Shown here: positions 3,990 to 45,146 of the stretch, one piece after another
How positions within the stretch are numbered: the first letter of the stretch is position 1
Layout: every line of letters starts with the position of its first letter
Source: a phage
Reading direction: 5' to 3' (one strand)
Assembly (NCBI GenBank): GCA_018015315.1
Contig: GCA_018015315.1_3629.1
Length of the DNA: 64,000 nt
Position numbers and translations under genes: made by a program
Notes under the pieces: model-generated
What the model was told of the DNA's origin: nothing
What the model saw: only the letters and a program-made list of their open reading frames with translations
The model's database searches: none

Positions 3990-5366
3990 TTATTCAGTCA
4001 TTGCAACAGCATTGGTGGATTTAGAACCAACTTTGTCCAGAAGGACGTTGATCCGGATACGAACGAAGTGCAGGGCGTTGTTATACACCAGTTCTACTTT
4101 CACACCTTCCAGAACACGAGCAGCCAACTGATTGGTTGGAATCTCTGCACGTTTAGGAACTGTGATGATCGGGTCGTAGAACACATTGTTGTCTTCGTCA
4201 AAACCTGTCAGGATCGCACCATTCTTAATGCCAGTGTTGATTGGGTTGTTCATCAGGACAGACTTGATAACCGGAAGATCATCATCAGACATCTTCATGC
4301 TTAAACCCATGTTGGAGCGACGATGCATGTACCCAAACATAGATTCTTCAGATCTGAACTTGATCCAGTGTGCAAAACGAATAGCGTCTGCATACTGACC
4401 TGAAGCACACTTACCTTCCCAGAAAGCACCAACACCGTTAATCATTCTGTAGAAGTTAACGTGGTTTTCCCAAATAGCCATACGCTGAGTTAAAGTCAGA
4501 GACGGTGCAATCACACCTGGCATCTGTTTTAAGTGCAAGCTGTCGCCGTAAGACGGATCGTTGGATGCCATAGCACCTATGATACCACCCTCCGGGAAGT
4601 CCTTATCTGCACGAGGATCGTACATGCCGACACTGTCATATTGTGCAGCTTTCAGTTTGGTGGCGATGTTATTATCTTTACCCGTCACATCTTCTGCAGT
4701 AGAGTAGACATGCAGCTTGTAGTTAGCCTGAGCCCACTTAGCACATGCTTCAATGTCGGTGTGGTCTTCATGGCACAGGAAGTACCAATTGTCACGCTCA
4801 GCATTGATCTTATCAACTACTGTAGAAGGTTTTTCAGCATTGGCGATATTTTTGATTGTATAGTTACCAGTATGGTAACCAACAGTACAGTCACCAGTGA
4901 TGGTGAGAACACCTTCAGAAGCCTCTACAGTGATATCGTCCAAGTTATCATCTGCTTCGATTTTAGTCTTCATTGACTCTGCAATCTGAGTTGCAGCTGT
5001 TCCACCAGAGATAGGGACTATCAAAGAGGTATTGTAGCTACCTTTTGCAATAGTCATTACGACATCGGTATCAGCTGCGGCAGCAATACCTTTAAAATCT
5101 ACAGTGGTCTTTTCTTTGGCCTGTCTGCCGATCATAACGTATTGTGGAGGGAATACACCACCAAAAGCTTTTGCTGCAAACTCATACGCTGCAGAGCCTT
5201 GTGCGAAACCATCTTCCACCATCTGATCCAGCTCTGCATATACGCGAGCTCGCTCAGTAAAGTTGTTGTGGATAGCGATGAACAGGGGAGTTTCGAAACC
5301 TACAGTGTCAATAGGCTGGGTTCCGAGGTTAACTGTAACATCTACCACTTTATCTAAATATGGCAT
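3990..5366 (-). CDS. contractile tail sheath protein
   Basis: 458 aa; size and position (before tube, chaperones, tape measure); strongly biased codon usage. Confidence 0.6.
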   Translation of the reverse strand: MPYLDKVVDVTVNLGTQPIDTVGFETPLFIAIHNNFTERARVYAELDQMVEDGFAQGSAAYEFAAKAFGGVFPPQYVMIGRQAKEKTTVDFKGIAAAADTDVVMTIAKGSYNTSLIVPISGGTAATQIAESMKTKIEADDNLDDITVEASEGVLTITGDCTVGYHTGNYTIKNIANAEKPSTVVDKINAERDNWYFLCHEDHTDIEACAKWAQANYKLHVYSTAEDVTGKDNNIATKLKAAQYDSVGMYDPRADKDFPEGGIIGAMASNDPSYGDSLHLKQMPGVIAPSLTLTQRMAIWENHVNFYRMINGVGAFWEGKCASGQYADAIRFAHWIKFRSEESMFGYMHRRSNMGLSMKMSDDDLPVIKSVLMNNPINTGIKNGAILTGFDEDNNVFYDPIITVPKRAEIPTNQLAARVLEGVKVELVYNNALHFVRIRINVLLDKVGSKSTNAVAMTE

Positions 5367-15466: not shown

Positions 15467-15736
15467 TTATCGAGGCACTCGGTGGATGATTCTAACAGTA
15501 ACTGCATTTTCATTCATCAAGTATGCATCTACATCTCTGTAAATATAAAACTTCTGCTCACTATCAACAACACAAGCTACCGCCCCTTCAGAGTTGTCTT
15601 CAAAAAAGACCACCACTGCATCGCAGCTGAGTTCATGATATGACTCTCGAAGATTTACAGCCAGAGGATTGAAATCGTCACGAAAATCTACGGTATGGGT
15701 TGGATTTACACGCTCTACAATTTTAAGTGTATACAT
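15467..15736 (-). CDS. hypothetical protein
   Basis: start moved to internal ATG (MYTLKIV) with AAAGGAA RBS because track ORF would overlap tRNA-Pro. Confidence 0.4.
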   Translation of the reverse strand: MYTLKIVERVNPTHTVDFRDDFNPLAVNLRESYHELSCDAVVVFFEDNSEGAVACVVDSEQKFYIYRDVDAYLMNENAVTVRIIHRVPR

Positions 15737-15782: not shown

Positions 15783-15859
15783 TGGTCTCCACGGAGTGAT
15801 TCGAACACTCGACCTCCTGATCCCAAATCAGGCGCTCTACCAAGCTGAGCTACGCGGAG
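15783..15859 (-). tRNA. tRNA-Pro (anticodon TGG)
   Basis: cloverleaf by eye: 7-bp acceptor stem (one G-T), anticodon loop TTTGGGA, T-loop TTCGAAT, encoded CCA. Confidence 0.8.
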
Positions 15860-15870
15860 TATTTACTATT

Positions 15871-15945
15871 TGGTGGCCCTGGGTGGAATTGAACCACCGT
15901 CTGGCGATTATGAGTCGCTTGCTTGAACCTTCCAGCTACAGGGCC
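15871..15945 (-). tRNA. tRNA-Met (anticodon CAT; initiator, elongator or Ile-lysidine not distinguishable)
   Basis: perfect 7-bp acceptor GGCCCTG/CAGGGCC, loop CTCATAA, T-loop TTCAATT, encoded CCA. Confidence 0.8.
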
Positions 15946-15946
15946 T

Positions 15947-16022
15947 TGGTGCTGATGGCAGGACTTGAACCTGCAACATATTGATTACAAATCAATTGCA
16001 CTACCAATTGTGCTACATCAGC
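15947..16022 (-). tRNA. tRNA-Thr (anticodon TGT)
   Basis: acceptor GCTGATG/CATCAGC, anticodon loop TTTGTAA, T-loop TTCAAGT, encoded CCA. Confidence 0.8.
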
Positions 16023-16029
16023 AAAAAGG

Positions 16030-16126
16030 TGCTAGGTGATGGAATCGAACCATCTATGTATTCAACGACTACCTCGTCTATTTTCAGGATTAAAAATCCT
16101 CGCCCTTGCCAAAGGGCTTACCTAGC
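16030..16126 (-). tRNA. atypical type-II tRNA-like gene (Leu-like scaffold, apparent anticodon TTT)
   Basis: perfect acceptor GCTAGGT/ACCTAGC, D-arm, perfect T-arm GATGG-TTCGATT-CCATC, discriminator A; anticodon hairpin AGGATTTTTAATCCT; about 30-nt variable region with GACGA/TCGTT hairpin; CCA not encoded. Confidence 0.45.
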
Positions 16127-16224
16127 TCAGTATGTTGACCATGTTGCTAGTCGGCGATGACGACTGTAACATTTGATAATCCGGTTCTGCTTCCGGCTTT
16201 CGCTTAATTACAAGGTCAACAATG

Positions 16225-16315
16225 TGGCAGAGGATAATGGAATCGAACCATCATCGAGTCATCCTCAACGGGACGGTTTTCAAGACCGCTTGAGCACCAT
16301 TGCTCCCTACCCTCT
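16225..16315 (-). tRNA. tRNA-Ser (anticodon TGA)
   Basis: type-II: acceptor AGAGGGT/ATCCTCT, anticodon loop CTTGAAA, about 20-nt variable arm, discriminator G, encoded CCA. Confidence 0.7.
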
Positions 16316-16432
16316 TTTATTATAAACAATACTGATAATGACACTGATTTTCGAGCAGTTAGTGACTAGTATAAACGACGATAAATACCAATGCCATTAT
16401 CTGTATGATTTATGCATCTAAAAATATAAATT

Positions 16433-16519
16433 TGGTGGGGAGTGGTGGAGTCGAACCACCCGAGTCGCAATGACAATAGATTTACAGTCTACACCGCTAC
16501 CTCTACGGGATAACTCCCC
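16433..16519 (-). tRNA. tRNA-Tyr (anticodon GTA)
   Basis: type-II: acceptor GGGGAGT/ACTCCCC, anticodon loop CTGTAAA, long variable arm, discriminator A, encoded CCA. Confidence 0.8.
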
Positions 16520-16523
16520 AATT

Positions 16524-16598
16524 TGGCACCCCGTACTGGACTCGAACCAGTGTCAACGGCTTAGAAGGCCGCTGCTTTATCCACTAAGCTAACAGGGC
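16524..16598 (-). tRNA. tRNA-Arg (anticodon TCT)
   Basis: anticodon stem-loop GCGGC-CTTCTAA-GCCGT, T-arm ACTGG-TTCGAGT-CCAGT, acceptor with two G-T pairs, encoded CCA. Confidence 0.75.
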
Positions 16599-16694
16599 AC
16601 TGGGTGGCTTTCTTTTACACCTTAGCCGCCAGAAAAGGTGGGAGACCATGTTTACAATATTACACTGTTAAGCAAAGTTTGTCAAGAAAATATT

Positions 16695-19532: not shown

Positions 19533-20087
19533 TTACTCCCCGCTGTCAATAGCAAGACTCATTGCAATAAGGTATGCCTCTTCTAATGGTAAGAGTCTCC
19601 CCCACACATCCCAACCGACATCAAACTGCCTGCCAAACAACTGCTGTGTGGTTCCGTGAGCATGACCGAACAGTTGGACTGATCCGTGAGGCTTTCTGTT
19701 CCACTTTGCAAACTGGTAATGGCTCATACAGATCAAATTCTTGTTGTGGCGAAGCTCGTAATAATCTACAACCTCATGACCGAACTCTTTCATAATTCTG
19801 ACAGTCGTCCTTGTGTCATGGTTACCACGAACAAGAATAATATGTCCGTTCAACATATTTAGAACATCTGGGAGCAATTTGTTGATATTCTTATCATTAG
19901 TGCACGCAATATCTCCCAAGTGAAACACAGTGTCTGCAGGCGACACAACAGAGTTCCACTCGGCGATGATTCCCGCATTCATACTGTCAAGATTGTGATC
20001 ATACTGAGATCTGTGTTTTTGACATGAATCAAACTCCATGACCCGCTGGTGGAGAAAGTGTGTGTCGCTTGTTACAAAGTATTTCAT
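19533..20087 (-). CDS. calcineurin-like metallophosphoesterase
   Basis: motifs DTHF, GDIA, GNHD in order; start moved to ATG (MKYFVTSDTHF) with GAGGA RBS overlapping stop of kinase gene. Confidence 0.75.
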   Translation of the reverse strand: MKYFVTSDTHFLHQRVMEFDSCQKHRSQYDHNLDSMNAGIIAEWNSVVSPADTVFHLGDIACTNDKNINKLLPDVLNMLNGHIILVRGNHDTRTTVRIMKEFGHEVVDYYELRHNKNLICMSHYQFAKWNRKPHGSVQLFGHAHGTTQQLFGRQFDVGWDVWGRLLPLEEAYLIAMSLAIDSGE

Positions 20088-20094
20088 ACATTCC

Positions 20095-20505
20095 TCATTT
20101 AAGTTTAATGCAGTTTTTAAGCTGGCGTTCCATACGATCCACAACCTTGTCTGGAACATCATGAATGCTTTTATTACCGTGGCGGTTTTCAACCACGATC
20201 ACGGTATAACTATACCCATGACTGATTGCCATGTCAACATATTCCTGCACATGTTTTTCTTTTGTAAACGTATTACTTACCACGATACGGTCGTATCCCA
20301 TACGCATCATATCTTCTACGTTATCTTTGCACCATTTTGCTGCGAGTGTTACTTTACTTGCATCCCAGTTGTAATTGCCGTCATCGTCATACCAGAACAT
20401 ATCGTTCTCAAAATGTGGATACAGACCTTCTAAAGATAGCGCATTTGCCAGTGTTGATTTGCCAGACCCTGGCAGACCACGCACGATATATAGCATTTTA
20501 GACAT
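20095..20505 (-). CDS. P-loop kinase (polynucleotide-kinase-like)
   Basis: Walker A GLPGSGKST at N-terminus, about 135 aa; start at ATG (MSKMLYIV) with GGAGG RBS. Confidence 0.6.
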   Translation of the reverse strand: MSKMLYIVRGLPGSGKSTLANALSLEGLYPHFENDMFWYDDDGNYNWDASKVTLAAKWCKDNVEDMMRMGYDRIVVSNTFTKEKHVQEYVDMAISHGYSYTVIVVENRHGNKSIHDVPDKVVDRMERQLKNCIKLK

Positions 20506-20533
20506 AGCAATCCTCCGTTTTAATTTTAATGAT

Positions 20534-20562
20534 AGTATACCTAACTGTTTTGTTAATTTCAA
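20534..20562 (-). promoter_or_regulatory. sigma70-like promoter for kinase/phosphoesterase operon
   Basis: minus-strand TTGAAA-17 bp-TATACT upstream of RBS. Confidence 0.45.
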
Positions 20563-20623
20563 GTGTTGACACTAGGTTATTTGTGTGGCAGGATAGACTG
20601 ACAAAATGACAAATGAGGAACGT

Positions 20624-21541
20624 ATGATGAAGTATTTTAATGCAGATGACCTAGTAGACAAAGGTCTTGTAACCAGTCGGTATTATCCAGATCTTGGATT
20701 AAAGATCTATAAATATGCCAGAAAAGTATTCTACAACAATCTGTGGCATTTGTCTCCGCGTTTACTGGAGTGCCGAGGTATTGTTGTTGGCAATGAGGGG
20801 AATGTTGTGGCATGGCCTTTCACAAAAGTATTCAACTTAGGAGAAAACTCCACCAACCTACCGGACAGTAAACTTGTTACTGCGGTAGAGAAAAAGAACG
20901 GATTCCTCGGTGTGGTATCATCTCATAAAGGTGAACTATTGTTCTCAACAACCGGGTCTCTTGATTCTCCATATTGTAACCTTGCAAAGGAAACCATCCA
21001 AGAGCAATGTGGTAATTTAGATCTTATCAAGAAGGTTATGGGCAATGAAAACATGACATTCATGTTTGAAATTTGTCACCCTTCAGATCCGCATATTGTT
21101 CAAGAAGACCATGGCGCATATTTGATAGGTTGCAGATATAATGATTCTGGAATAATGCTACCAGAAGCAGCTTTAGATGGGATTGCCAAATACCTTGGTG
21201 CAAAACGTCCTCACACTGTGCGTGAAATCCCGTTCAGCTATGCAAAAGAATTAGCTGCAGAAACAAGGGGCGAAGGGTATATGATCCGTAAGCCTTACTA
21301 CCCTTATGACCTGCAGCTGAAGATCAAGTCTCCATACTATTTGGCACGGAAGGCCGTAATGAGAGGTAAAGCATGGAAGATTTGGGATGACGATATTTTT
21401 AAACGTGTTGACGAGGAGTTTTACGGTATGGTAAAATTTATTCGTAGCAACTATACAGAAGATGTGTGGAATTGCTTATTAGAGCAGGAGCGTCGCGAGA
21501 TACTGGACTGCTATTTCCACAACGAGGACTACATGAAATGA
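20624..21541 (+). CDS. RNA-ligase-like nucleotidyltransferase
   Basis: ligase motifs: I EKKNGF, III FMFEI, IV EGYMIRK, V LKIKSP; start taken at ATG 20624 after GAGGA (track start 20606). Confidence 0.5.
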   Translation: MMKYFNADDLVDKGLVTSRYYPDLGLKIYKYARKVFYNNLWHLSPRLLECRGIVVGNEGNVVAWPFTKVFNLGENSTNLPDSKLVTAVEKKNGFLGVVSSHKGELLFSTTGSLDSPYCNLAKETIQEQCGNLDLIKKVMGNENMTFMFEICHPSDPHIVQEDHGAYLIGCRYNDSGIMLPEAALDGIAKYLGAKRPHTVREIPFSYAKELAAETRGEGYMIRKPYYPYDLQLKIKSPYYLARKAVMRGKAWKIWDDDIFKRVDEEFYGMVKFIRSNYTEDVWNCLLEQERREILDCYFHNEDYMK

Positions 21542-21896: not shown

Positions 21897-22658
21897 ATGC
21901 GACGACTGATTATTATCTCCGGTGCTGGTTTGAGCGCTGAATCTGGTATTCCCACTTTCCGATCTGGTAGCACTGCAATGTGGGAGAATTTCAGCATCGA
22001 TGAGGTGTGCAACATCCACACCTTTGCCAAGAACTACTATAAGGTGCATGACTTTTACAATGCACGTCGTGTAGCTCTGGGCAGTGTTGATCCTAACCTT
22101 GCACATCTTCGGATCGCTGAGTGGTATTCCCGCTGGTCTGGTCGTGTGATCAACCTTACCACCAATGTAGATGATTTGCTGGAGCGTGCTGGTGTAAAAC
22201 ATGAAGATATTTTACATGTCCACGGGTATTTGCCTGAAATCACCTACGAAGATGCTGAAGGTAATGATGTAATTAAAAATATCGGATACACGGAGGTAGA
22301 TACAGGCAAGTATACCTGGGTTAAGCCCAATGTAGTGTTCTTCGGTGAGGTTGCTCCTAAGTATACAGACATGTATGACCTGTTGACATCTCTCACAAGC
22401 AATGATATGGTGATCCTAGTAGGTTGTTCTAACACAGTTATTAATTTTAACTGGGAATTGTTTCCTGCTACTTGTAAAGGCACAAAACTGCTGATTGTAA
22501 ACAAGTATGACTCGCAGAGTGCAGATGGAAGTGGCATTTCACGTAGCGACCTTTATCAATATGAGGATCGCGGGATCCCTGTATGGTTTAACGGTGCTGT
22601 TGACGCTTTCTCTGATAAAGCATTTATTGAAACTGTAGAAAACTTTATGGAACTTTAA
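21897..22658 (+). CDS. Sir2-family protein (no zinc ribbon)
   Basis: GAGLSAESGIPTFRS, TTNVDDL, catalytic HG, VVFFGE motifs; no CxxC pairs. Confidence 0.75.
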   Translation: MRRLIIISGAGLSAESGIPTFRSGSTAMWENFSIDEVCNIHTFAKNYYKVHDFYNARRVALGSVDPNLAHLRIAEWYSRWSGRVINLTTNVDDLLERAGVKHEDILHVHGYLPEITYEDAEGNDVIKNIGYTEVDTGKYTWVKPNVVFFGEVAPKYTDMYDLLTSLTSNDMVILVGCSNTVINFNWELFPATCKGTKLLIVNKYDSQSADGSGISRSDLYQYEDRGIPVWFNGAVDAFSDKAFIETVENFMEL

Positions 22659-44096: not shown

Positions 44097-45146
44097 ATGA
44101 ATTTAACACCTCGCAGCACCATGGTACACGGCATGAAAGAAAAACAGAACGGTTTCGAACCTATGAGTAATAAAATGTTTGGTATGCCGGGTGGTATTAT
44201 GGAAACATACAGCTACCCAACACCTGTTGTTGACCACGTTCTTTATATCGACGATTTGGAAGACTTACAAGATCATATGTCTCGTCTGCAGACGATCCGT
44301 ATGGCTCAGCCGGAAGAAAGCATTCGGGTGATCATCAATAGCCCTGGGGGTTGCGTGCACATTGCAATGGCCTATCTGCAGGCATTCCGCGAGTCTCAGG
44401 CAAGCGTTGTTGCACATGCTGAAGGGATGTGCTGCTCTGCTGGAACAATCTTATGGCTTGGTTGTAAAGAACGTACTGTGGCTCCGGACACAGAGTTTAT
44501 GTTCCACTACTATCAAGGTGGCACTTATGGTAACGGTGTGAACATGAATACTCAGGTCAGCTACTGGAAAAAACGTTTTGAACGCCTGATCGAAAAATAC
44601 TACGGTGGGGTGCTGACAGAAGATGAGATCGCATCCATCACAGCTGGTGGCGAAGTGTGGTTGGACGGAGAAGAGCTGGCAGCACGCACTGGAGCTATTA
44701 TTCTGGATGAAGGCAACATACAACGCATCCAGAACGGACAAAAACCGAAAAAGCTTCTGGCAAAAGGTGATGAAGAAGGCGTGTTAGGTGAAGCAGGTCT
44801 TCCGGAGATTCACCAGTGCACATCTTTAGATGAGTTAGTTCATGCTGTTGAATCTGCAAAAGCGGGTGGTTCGAAAGGTGATGTTCACACTGTGTTCCTG
44901 AATCTGCAGATGGAGAGTGGCGAGACCGTCAGAATTGCCCTGGGTGAGATTACTTCAGAAGATCTGCAGAGATTCTCTGTCGTTGAACTTCAGGATATTC
45001 TGTCTCAATTGAAGACTACTCTGAACGGCGGTGAAGAGGTTAAGGTGAAAGATAAGACGCGCAAGCGTCTGGTGGACAATATTATTAAAACAGCAAAAGA
45101 GCTCAATGAAAAAATCCTGGGTGCAGGAATTGTCGAAGAAGCTTAA
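44097..45146 (+). CDS. ClpP-like serine peptidase with C-terminal extension
   Basis: INSPGG, MCCSAG (Ser), MFHYYQGG (His) match ClpP landmarks; about 130 aa extra C-terminal region. Confidence 0.65.
   Translation: MNLTPRSTMVHGMKEKQNGFEPMSNKMFGMPGGIMETYSYPTPVVDHVLYIDDLEDLQDHMSRLQTIRMAQPEESIRVIINSPGGCVHIAMAYLQAFRESQASVVAHAEGMCCSAGTILWLGCKERTVAPDTEFMFHYYQGGTYGNGVNMNTQVSYWKKRFERLIEKYYGGVLTEDEIASITAGGEVWLDGEELAARTGAIILDEGNIQRIQNGQKPKKLLAKGDEEGVLGEAGLPEIHQCTSLDELVHAVESAKAGGSKGDVHTVFLNLQMESGETVRIALGEITSEDLQRFSVVELQDILSQLKTTLNGGEEVKVKDKTRKRLVDNIIKTAKELNEKILGAGIVEEA

Follow-up and report, generated by a model that had tools for sequence, protein, structure and literature searches.

What does a cluster of transfer RNA (tRNA) genes in a coliphage encode besides tRNAs? 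The question is raised by positions 15783 to 16598 of contig GCA_018015315.1_3629.1 (NCBI GenBank assembly GCA_018015315.1), a phage DNA of 64,000 nucleotides (nt) that was analysed over its whole length and is called the window below. An earlier reading of its letters (the original prediction) had described seven tRNA genes there, including readers of rare codons; we find the observation confirmed and its interpretation right in part. With a probability of roughly 85%, the locus is the tRNA operon of an rV5-like phage, yielding one precursor that includes two extra RNAs alongside six ordinary tRNAs: an irregular tRNA-like RNA, which had been counted as the seventh tRNA, and a structured non-tRNA RNA of ~95 nt in what had been taken for a spacer. 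The tRNA cluster itself is ordinary; novelty is limited to these two RNAs, and the mechanisms proposed for them are hypothetical.

Sequence similarity assigns the window to an rV5-like coliphage (Vequintavirus). Across the 1-kb region it is 99.5% identical to the Escherichia phage MiataMamis and 98.3% identical to phage rV5, and more than 100 Vequintavirus records match the region over its full length. At the same locus the rV5 record annotates the same six tRNAs in the same order (Arg, Tyr, Ser, Thr, Met, Pro), with a sigma-70 promoter, 'P(tRNA)', just upstream of Arg, and the window departs from it in a few substitutions (for example A1-U72 in tRNA-Ser and, within the tRNA-like RNA, A50) and in having 3 nt inserted into the 117-nt spacer. 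The cluster and the rare-codon argument are already known, having been published for rV5 as 'six tRNAs' with a codon-usage rationale (Kropinski et al. 2013, PMC3606486; GenBank DQ832317). The rV5 paper and record call the gene with a CAU anticodon (the CAU gene below) Met, however, and are silent on both the tRNA-like RNA and the structured spacer. The features of the locus, in the order in which they would be transcribed, are as follows:

16657..16685, minus strand: predicted sigma-70 promoter, TTGACA, 17 nt, TAATAT (promoter scan 10/12; rV5 'P(tRNA)')
16524..16598, minus strand: tRNA-Arg(UCU), reads AGA, CCA encoded (ARAGORN; Rfam tRNA 67.8 bits)
16433..16519, minus strand: tRNA-Tyr(GUA), class II (ARAGORN; Rfam tRNA 29.9 bits against a gathering score of 29)
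16316..16432, minus strand: AT-rich 117-nt spacer with a long hairpin (fold z = -3.53)
16225..16315, minus strand: tRNA-Ser(UGA), class II, with A8 and an A1-U72 pair (ARAGORN; selenocysteine tRNA (tRNA-Sec) model 39.4 bits)
16130..16224, minus strand: ~95-nt structured RNA, not a tRNA, inside the 98-nt spacer 16127-16224 (similarity and covariance model R1, 92.4 bits)
16028..16126, minus strand: irregular tRNA-like RNA, ARAGORN label '???(atcc)' (Rfam tRNA 37.5 bits)
15947..16022, minus strand: tRNA-Thr(UGU), reads ACA (ARAGORN; Rfam tRNA 78 bits)
15871..15945, minus strand: CAU gene, ARAGORN Met(cat), better called tRNA-Ile2 (Rfam tRNA 60 bits)
15783..15859, minus strand: tRNA-Pro(UGG), reads CCA (ARAGORN; Rfam tRNA 66.4 bits)

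ARAGORN returned the same seven head-to-tail minus-strand genes, at the same positions, as the original prediction, with no others in the whole window, and the spacers, foreseen as 1-117 base pairs (bp), measure 11, 1, 5, 98, 117 and 4 nt from Pro to Arg. The prospect that most of the seven would score below threshold with covariance models did not materialise: Thr, Arg, Pro, the CAU gene, Tyr and the atypical element, six of the seven, reach the gathering score of 29 bits of the Rfam tRNA model (RF00005), while Ser does not, and E-values of 1e-10 to 1e-15 for the four best genes are far beyond chance. In cmscan alignments a 7-nt anticodon loop, U33, a purine at position 37 and a 5-bp anticodon stem are present in Thr, Arg, Pro, the CAU gene, Ser and Tyr. 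What stands of the count of seven is these six ordinary tRNAs, whereas the seventh gene is an irregular tRNA-like RNA whose anticodon loop is not conserved among orthologues. The description of two AT-rich spacers holds for the 117-nt spacer (26.5% G+C) but not for the 98-nt spacer, at 43.9% G+C against 42.8% for the window.

The tRNA-like RNA has an acceptor stem GCUAGGU/ACCUAGC, A8 and A9, and a D arm GCCCUU-UGGC-AAGGGC in the cmscan alignment. Its anticodon stem AGGA/UCCU, with an invariant G flanking each side, carries the loop UUUUUAA; a variable region of 31 nt is followed by the T arm GAUGG-UUCGAUU-CCAUC, and A73 by CC and U. The fold has a z-score of -4.03. Homologues are found in 189 phage records (Escherichia, Salmonella, Cronobacter, Klebsiella, Proteus, Erwinia and Enterobacter phages), and in all clusters examined in detail they lie directly after tRNA-Thr, sometimes with one tRNA between; no relative was found in the host, among 5,426 E. 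coli genomes. GenBank treats the element in six ways (nothing, tRNA-Lys, tRNA-OTHER, tRNA-TERM, tRNA-Ser and "???(atcc)"), and the BASEL records, annotated with tRNAscan-SE, call it tRNA-Lys.

Covariation was assessed in 14 distinct orthologues from five genera, giving 320 cells for 23 proposed pairs. All 320 cells are standard pairs and 9 of the 23 pairs have changed on both sides; none of 500 shuffles scores as high in covariation, and pairing falls to 36-49% once the partners are slid. RNAalifold independently predicts the same cloverleaf. The contacts of an L-shape are all there, namely acceptor, D and T stems and the 19:56 elbow pair, which is G19:C56 in 8 sequences and U19:A56 in 6, probably through one event. 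Each stem, and the contact of D-loop and T-loop, has compensatory changes, and these alignments argue for a structure under selection, conserved across the Vequintavirinae, and not for a pseudogene. The 'seventh tRNA' is best annotated as a conserved irregular tRNA-like RNA.

Where this RNA departs from tRNAs, it does so consistently. A8 is invariant and the D arm has a 6-bp stem and a 4-nt loop in 14 of 14 orthologues, in place of U8 and a normal D arm, and the anticodon stem, canonically of 5 bp, consists of four Watson-Crick pairs and a G/G juxtaposition. The variable region, 31-40 nt across orthologues, comprises a covarying hairpin between two invariant single-stranded flanks, GAAAA and AAUACAUAG; no site complementary to the invariant AAUACAUAG was found within the window. 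Most copies encode U73 and CCA, while the rV5 type has A73 and CC, with A73 restricted to the rV5 genus among the orthologues, and in Avunavirus position 73 is U or C, with ACA after it. The anticodon loop varies from UUUUUAA, UUUAUAA and CAUCAAA to CCAUCCAG, CCCACCAG, CCCUCCAG, CCAGCCAG and CCCGCCAG, and by genus it reads:

Vequintavirus: loop UUUUUAA
Avunavirus: loop UUUAUAA
Henunavirus: loop CAUCAAA (the only copies with UCA)
Seunavirus and Mydovirus: loop CC[A/C][U/A/G]CCAG, 8 nt

In Seunavirus and Mydovirus (Salmonella phage KE22, L006:1602-1796; GAP31, Mydo and FENT2) we also observed uncalled tRNA-like fragments, for example GCATTAGCTCAG and GTAGAGCGCC, in the 200-300 nt after the tRNA-like RNA; several records put tiny open reading frames (ORFs) over these RNAs.

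More specific class assignments were rejected. An ochre suppressor (UUA) loop disagrees with the cmscan alignment, which reads UUUUUAA, and no alignment or fold backs the four-base anticodon "(atcc)" of ARAGORN. Membership of tRNA-Sec (RF01852, gathering score 47) does not hold either: RF00005 wins in the window, the KE22 orthologue scores only 26.5 bits, and UCA occurs in Henunavirus alone. The closest described class is that of the allo-tRNAs, which have a long variable arm, a tRNA-Sec-like D arm, U73 or G73 and diverse anticodons, several being inactive in translation (Mukai et al. 2017, PMC5389517). The tRNA-like RNA resembles them in its long variable arm, its long D stem with a tetraloop, mostly U73, and anticodons that include UAU and UCA, and allo-tRNAs likewise occur in polycistrons and phages, some of them probably outside translation. 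It is nevertheless not filed there, since their 8/4 or 9/3 branch is absent: a 7-bp acceptor and a 5-bp T stem (7/5) are found in all orthologues. Its anticodon stem is moreover shorter, not longer, its variable flanks are long, conserved and unpaired, and some orthologues have 8-nt loops.

The second extra RNA lies in the 98-nt spacer (16127-16224), for which the original prediction had considered a promoter and which instead holds a conserved, gene-sized structured RNA common to lambda and P1-like phages. BLAST matches it to lambda 44866-44952 at 83% identity and to P7 and D6, both P1-like, at 88%. In lambda, the best-studied phage, the copy (NC_001416 44866-44952; L004:587-681) sits unannotated between tR'/orf-64 and the S gene, just left of an EcoRI site, and the copies in lambdoid prophages are flanked by the genes for Q and the holin, whose start codon comes ~250 nt further downstream. 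The P7 copy (AF503408 72354-72447; L005:1488-1581) directly follows an unannotated tRNA-Ser(tga), as in the window. Of 5,426 complete E. coli genomes, 426 carry a copy, in no case annotated.

In the window the RNA consists of a closing stem, GTTGACC/GGTCAAC, and two hairpins, CCGG-AAGCAGAA-CCGG and AGTCG-TCATCGC-CGACT. A near-invariant core reads AAUUAAGCGAA..CCGG-AAGCAGAA-CCGG-AU.A.CAAAUG..ACAG.CG-UCAUCGC-CG.C.AGC, and the closing stem takes at least five unrelated yet complementary sequences:

Closing stem, window: GUUGACC/GGUCAAC
Closing stem, variant: AGGAUCA/UGAUCCU
Closing stem, lambda: GUUGUGCUG/CAGCACAAC
Closing stem, variant: GUUGUGGUG/CACCACA
Closing stem, P7: UUGGCU/AGCCAA

In an alignment fitted to model R1, 8 of 9 closing-stem pairs (helix P1) show two-sided changes and 92% of cells are paired, against 25-50% when slid and with none of 500 shuffles doing as well; the distinct complementary stems can also be read directly. 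The second hairpin contributes a U-A to G-C change and an outer pair that is A-U in the window, G-C in one relative (L070) and A/C in lambda, while the first hairpin (P2) never varies and gives no evidence either way. We conclude that the ~95-nt element is, on this covariation, a real three-way-junction RNA, which would be released from tRNA or late transcripts. Both extra RNAs are probably functional, because selection keeps their structure. If so, a ~90-nt three-way-junction RNA that travels with tRNA-Ser would be an unrecognised functional RNA in the lambda late leader and in P1-like phages.

This RNA matched no described family. Among the 4227 models of Rfam 15 the window copy had no match at E<=10, and the lambda copy had only a chance-level match to snoR114 (14.3 bits, E=2.4). 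A literature search with the core sequence returned no matching paper, and the small RNAs of the lambdoid Q-S region (AgvB, AsxR, Pas, STnc100) were rejected as being different RNAs. R1 finds no copy in the other Vequintavirinae genera examined, so the module of tRNA-Ser and this RNA was probably acquired by the rV5 lineage. A search of 185,579 genomes for divergent copies gave 28 matches, 21 of them lambda-type and one a true new variant.

Several side observations concern these copies. All but one of the 21 lambda-type copies (among loci L147-L174) are identical to lambda in the stretch compared, and they occur in assemblies of unrelated taxa (Pseudomonas, Bacteroidia, Veillonella, Streptomyces relatives), often on small contigs of low coverage and in two cases on contigs of ~48.4 kb, which looks like contamination of assemblies with lambda DNA. 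One copy, L045 (IMGVR_UViG_3300045988_015603, 4065-4160), joins a P7-type 5' flank to a lambda-type 3' flank and is without the closing stem, and this hybrid is evidence for phage recombination within the conserved core. In P7 the structured RNA is followed by a sub-threshold STnc100-like match (43 bits against 47) and then by terB.

Among the ordinary tRNAs, the CAU gene is better called tRNA-Ile2, reading AUA, than Met. Its relatives in 5,345 E. coli genomes are every one annotated tRNA-Ile, and it is identical to E. coli tRNA-Ile(CAT) at 60 of 75 positions, including the whole 15-nt anticodon stem-loop GCGACUCAUAAUCGC and the first six acceptor-stem positions, GGCCCT, with a complementary 3' strand. 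The acceptor pairs C4:G69 and C5:G68 are of the Ile2 type and not the Met type. With what we take to be the elongator tRNA-Met sequence, the count is 51 of 75, with gaps. Homologues of the gene are ileZ in Stx phages and the CAU gene in T4-like phages, one copy of the latter being 98.7% identical. It agrees with E. coli tRNA-Ile2 (ileX/ileY) and ileZ in anticodon, GGCCCT acceptor and anticodon stem-loop but its D arm and its T stem have diverged from theirs. It is labelled Met by ARAGORN and in the rV5 record, and Ile/ATA in the BASEL records. The suggestion that the Met gene could be an Ile-lysidine tRNA is thereby borne out by homology, with modification of C34 to lysidine by TilS presumed, and the annotation should be corrected to tRNA-Ile2.

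The tRNA-Ser gene has no RF00005 match, and only the tRNA-Sec model finds it, at 39.4 bits, under the gathering score of 47. We accept it because of the ARAGORN call, a P7 homologue and compensatory changes at pair 1-72. The P7 homologue is 81% identical, with compensatory changes in the acceptor and variable arm, and among close relatives (L001, L002, L132) pair 1-72 is A-U, G-C or U-A. The region 16225-16315 thus reads as a convincing class II tRNA-Ser, its UGA anticodon retained through compensatory change, with charging by seryl-tRNA synthetase (SerRS) putative. Two observations may be added: in P7 the homologous tRNA-Ser(tga), detected by ARAGORN in a tRNA operon, is unannotated (AF503408; L005:1391-1477), and the first acceptor pair, an identity-relevant position, shows unusually fast compensatory turnover in phages that are otherwise ~98% identical.

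How would these genes be expressed? A scan for -35 and -10 hexamers 16-18 nt apart upstream of the first gene found TTGACA-17 nt-TAATAT at 16685-16657 on the minus strand (score 10/12), ~52 nt upstream of tRNA-Arg and in agreement with the rV5-annotated 'P(tRNA)'. It is a convincing, near-consensus predicted sigma-70 promoter that would drive the operon. The ~52-nt leader before tRNA-Arg has no significant fold (z = +1.09). The original prediction had placed a possible promoter in the two longer spacers instead; inside the cluster the best match is weak (9/12), neither spacer holds a conserved promoter, and the TATAAT of the 117-nt spacer is the product of a 3-nt insertion specific to the window, on which grounds that placement was rejected.

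From 16685-16657, host RNA polymerase would read one precursor in the order Arg-UCU, Tyr-GUA, Ser-UGA, ~95-nt RNA, tRNA-like RNA, Thr-UGU, Ile2-CAU and Pro-UGG, and host RNase P and 3'-end processing enzymes would cut it into pieces. The layout is most simply read as giving a single polycistronic precursor that the tRNA-processing enzymes of the host would cut. No terminator was seen after tRNA-Pro, and transcription therefore probably runs on into the downstream genes, the next ORF beginning with an ATG at 15736 and having its own ribosome-binding site. A terminator inside the tRNA-like RNA (16117-16102) was rejected, as the U run lies 5 nt from the stem and is missing from other genera. The 117-nt spacer forms a hairpin, GATAATGGCATTGGT / ATCAGTGTCATTATC, of ~15 bp with wobble pairs; its z-score is -3.53, none of 200 shuffles is as stable, and a divergent relative (L132) shows one compensatory change. 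It may be a processing site, possibly of the RNase III type.

Genes for RNA repair lie 3-5 kb upstream of the tRNA cluster and correspond to ORF80-82 of the rV5 record:

19533-20192, minus strand: phosphoesterase (Pfam Metallophos; PHROGs phosphoesterase)
20095-20562, minus strand: P-loop polynucleotide-kinase-like ATPase (Pfam AAA_33; PHROGs ATPase/polynucleotide kinase)
20606-21541, plus strand: T4 RnlA-type RNA ligase (Pfam RNA_lig_T4_1; PHROGs RNA ligase)

The kinase and ligase were assigned by Pfam and PHROGs, and a PDB sequence search with them gave no matches. By their families the three genes likely form a predicted RNA (tRNA) healing-and-sealing set like Pnk and Rnl1 of T4, a pathway that repairs tRNA-Lys cut by PrrC. 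A Sir2-family protein (21897-22658, plus strand; Pfam E = 7e-28; PHROG 'NAD-dependent deacetylase') adjoins the RNA ligase.

An interesting question is what the tRNA-like RNA is for. Our best guess is that it would substitute for, or act as a decoy of, a host tRNA hit by anticodon nucleases, here tRNA-Lys, and tRNA damage is a plausible selective pressure on rV5-like phages. Phage tRNA-Lys and tRNA-Tyr counter PrrC170 and retron-Eco7 (PMC11555353), and tRNA-Lys of T5 escapes PARIS, whose AriB cuts in the anticodon stem, through changes in its anticodon stem-loop (Burman et al. 2024, PMC11464382). In its fullest form the proposal is that the operon yields two undescribed functional RNAs, a nuclease-proof tRNA scaffold that is retargeted from genus to genus and would work alongside the phage ligase, kinase and phosphoesterase, and the three-way-junction RNA shared with lambda and P1-like phages; we put this forward tentatively and consider it doubtful as a whole.

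Several points weigh against these views of the operon and its products. Co-transcription and RNase P processing are inferred from the layout and from the T4 precedent; of the tRNAs, Ser falls short of the general Rfam tRNA model and Tyr clears its threshold by just 0.9 bit. Codon supplementation and the supply of tRNAs against nucleases cannot be told apart, the same data fitting both. In the tRNA-like RNA, the four Watson-Crick anticodon-stem pairs, A8 and the 31-nt variable region with its single-stranded flanks oppose a decoding or Lys role, and RNAalifold favours a stem of 5 bp enclosing a loop of 5-6 nt. The loop has 8 nt in some orthologues (CCNNCCAG), others carry UCA or UAU, and the closest genus, Avunavirus, is one base off (UAU), has U or C at 73 and encodes no CCA.

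The alternative that survives best, with a little under an even chance, is that the tRNA-like RNA does not decode at all and is a mimic whose conserved body and variable-region flanks would bind a host or phage protein, be it anticodon nuclease, synthetase or repair enzyme, making it a decoy, a sponge or a cofactor. We favour it to this extent because the loops drift between genera in sequence and length, up to 8 nt, while the body is strictly conserved, because UUU and UAU differ by one base between sister genera, and because normal tRNAs have no use for invariant unpaired flanks such as GAAAA and AAUACAUAG. The allo-tRNAs offer a precedent, with their long variable arms, tRNA-Sec-like D arms and diverse anticodons, several being translation-inactive and perhaps regulatory. 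A chargeable tRNA is favoured, on the other hand, by the U73 and CCA that most orthologues encode and by the match of anticodon-equivalent and discriminator in two clades, each to one identity set: UUU with A73, and NCC with U73, G1:C72 and C2:G71, the latter being what we take to be the Gly set. The partner protein of such a mimic is hypothetical.

A second alternative concerns the cluster as a whole, which might mainly replace host tRNAs lost to defence nucleases or infection-induced turnover rather than match codon usage. Codon shares counted over 45 long ORFs of the window are 25% for AGA, 37% for ACA, 28% for CCA, 13% for ATA and 17% for TCA. For rV5 and E. coli O157, respectively, the published values are 26% and 5.1% of Arg codons for AGA, 35 and 14.6% for ACA, 29 and 19.1% for CCA, and 46 and 42.7% for TAC (PMC3606486). 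The prediction that tRNA-Arg(TCT) reads a codon, AGA, that is rare in E. coli agrees with these figures. The six tRNAs would add decoding of AGA, AUA, ACA, CCA, UCA and UAC, mostly commoner in the phage than in E. coli, and the enrichment of AGA, ACA, CCA and AUA over the host explains most members by itself. Replacement is suggested instead by tRNA-Tyr, whose codon UAC is no commoner in the phage than in the host and whose 95.6% identity to a T4-like copy suggests recent spread; by the rescue of phages from retron-Eco7, PrrC170 and PARIS by phage tRNA-Tyr and tRNA-Lys; and by the RNA repair genes nearby. We regard replacement as the main role as possible but somewhat unlikely, and the two roles are compatible with each other.

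It is unlikely, though not far-fetched, that the tRNA-like RNA is a working, nuclease-resistant tRNA-Lys, charged by lysyl-tRNA synthetase (LysRS) through UUU and A73 and decoding AAA and AAG under cleavage of the PARIS or PrrC type. A73, presumably the Lys-type discriminator base, occurs in the genus Vequintavirus alone. The L-shape contacts and the 7/5 branch are retained, the anticodon stem AGGA/UCCU is unrelated to that of host tRNA-Lys, and Lys codons make up 7.3% of phage codons; the BASEL label tRNA-Lys from tRNAscan-SE and the repair genes nearby fit as well. The loop UUUUUAA matches that of E. coli tRNA-Lys, CUUUUAA (PMC11464382), at 6 of 7 positions, including U33, UUU, A37 and A38. 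A working tRNA-Lys is hard to reconcile, however, with the shortened anticodon stem, A8 and very large variable region with conserved unpaired flanks, with orthologues that have 8-nt loops or other anticodons (UAU without encoded CCA in the sister genus), with the low Rfam score of 37.5 bits and with the lack of a relative in the 5,426 E. coli genomes.

For the ~95-nt RNA, a role at the level of DNA, as a recombination linker or protein-binding site with incidental flanking inverted repeats, would suit where it is found, namely in the 'moron' region of lambda between Q and S, in the tRNA operon of P7 and in the rV5 cluster, all of them mosaic junctions, and also the existence of hybrid copies (L045). 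It is nonetheless very unlikely, as at least five different closing stems are all complementary, an inner pair has likewise gone from U-A to G-C, and the element always lies on the transcribed strand of an operon. That both elements are decaying tRNA pseudogenes or recombination junk, as inconsistent annotation (none, OTHER, TERM, Lys, Ser, ???), degenerate tRNA-like fragments in the tRNA clusters of related phages and the recombinant L045 copy without a closing stem might suggest, is hardly tenable and largely refuted by covariation, with 100% of cells paired across five genera and two-sided changes at 9 pairs in the tRNA-like RNA, and with such changes in 8 of 9 closing-stem pairs, a core nearly invariant in three unrelated phage groups and no tRNA-model match even at E<=10 in the spacer RNA.

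Similarity searches describe the cluster as a mosaic of tRNA modules that appear to have moved between unrelated phages. Compared with the T4-like phage ime09, identity is 86.8% for the Thr-Ile2 pair (159 nt) and 85.7% for Pro. The tRNA-Tyr is 95.6% identical over 91 nt to an unannotated ime09 copy (L180:1839-1929, NC_019503), in the gap after tRNA-'Met'(Ile), which points to T-even and rV5-like phages having exchanged tRNA genes recently. Ser and the 95 nt after it match phage P7 at 81% identity across 179 nt. Thr-Ile2, Pro and Tyr would thus be modules shared with T-even phages and Ser with the structured RNA a module shared with P1-like phages, while the tRNA-like RNA would be common to all Vequintavirinae.

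The T4/T-even cluster is likewise polycistronic and includes Pro-UGG, Ser-UGA, Thr-UGU, Ile-CAU and Arg-UCU. The window differs from T4 in gene order and content, with no Gln, Leu or Gly and with a Ser of the P1-like type. The T4 cluster also yields two stable non-tRNA RNAs of unknown function, rnaC and rnaD; the two extra RNAs of the window are without similarity to the T4-like cluster. Phage T5 tRNA-Lys resembles the tRNA-like RNA in being phage-encoded, with a Lys-type anticodon loop and an anticodon stem, the region cut by AriB, unlike that of the host, but it is a canonical class I tRNA of proven function, whereas the window element is irregular, is known from its sequence and has the Lys-like loop in one genus. 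In E. coli, 3'ETS-leuZ and the internal transcribed spacer (ITS) sponges are stable RNAs that derive from tRNA precursors in host operons and are short pairing regions, for the most part unstructured. The ~95-nt RNA would likewise come off a tRNA precursor, but it has a three-way junction and a near-invariant core and occurs in three phage groups.

A minor observation concerns the database records: ~18-19 'Campylobacter phage' records (GenBank MG0656xx) are, over this locus, ~98% identical to rV5-type coliphages and are probably mislabelled or contaminant.

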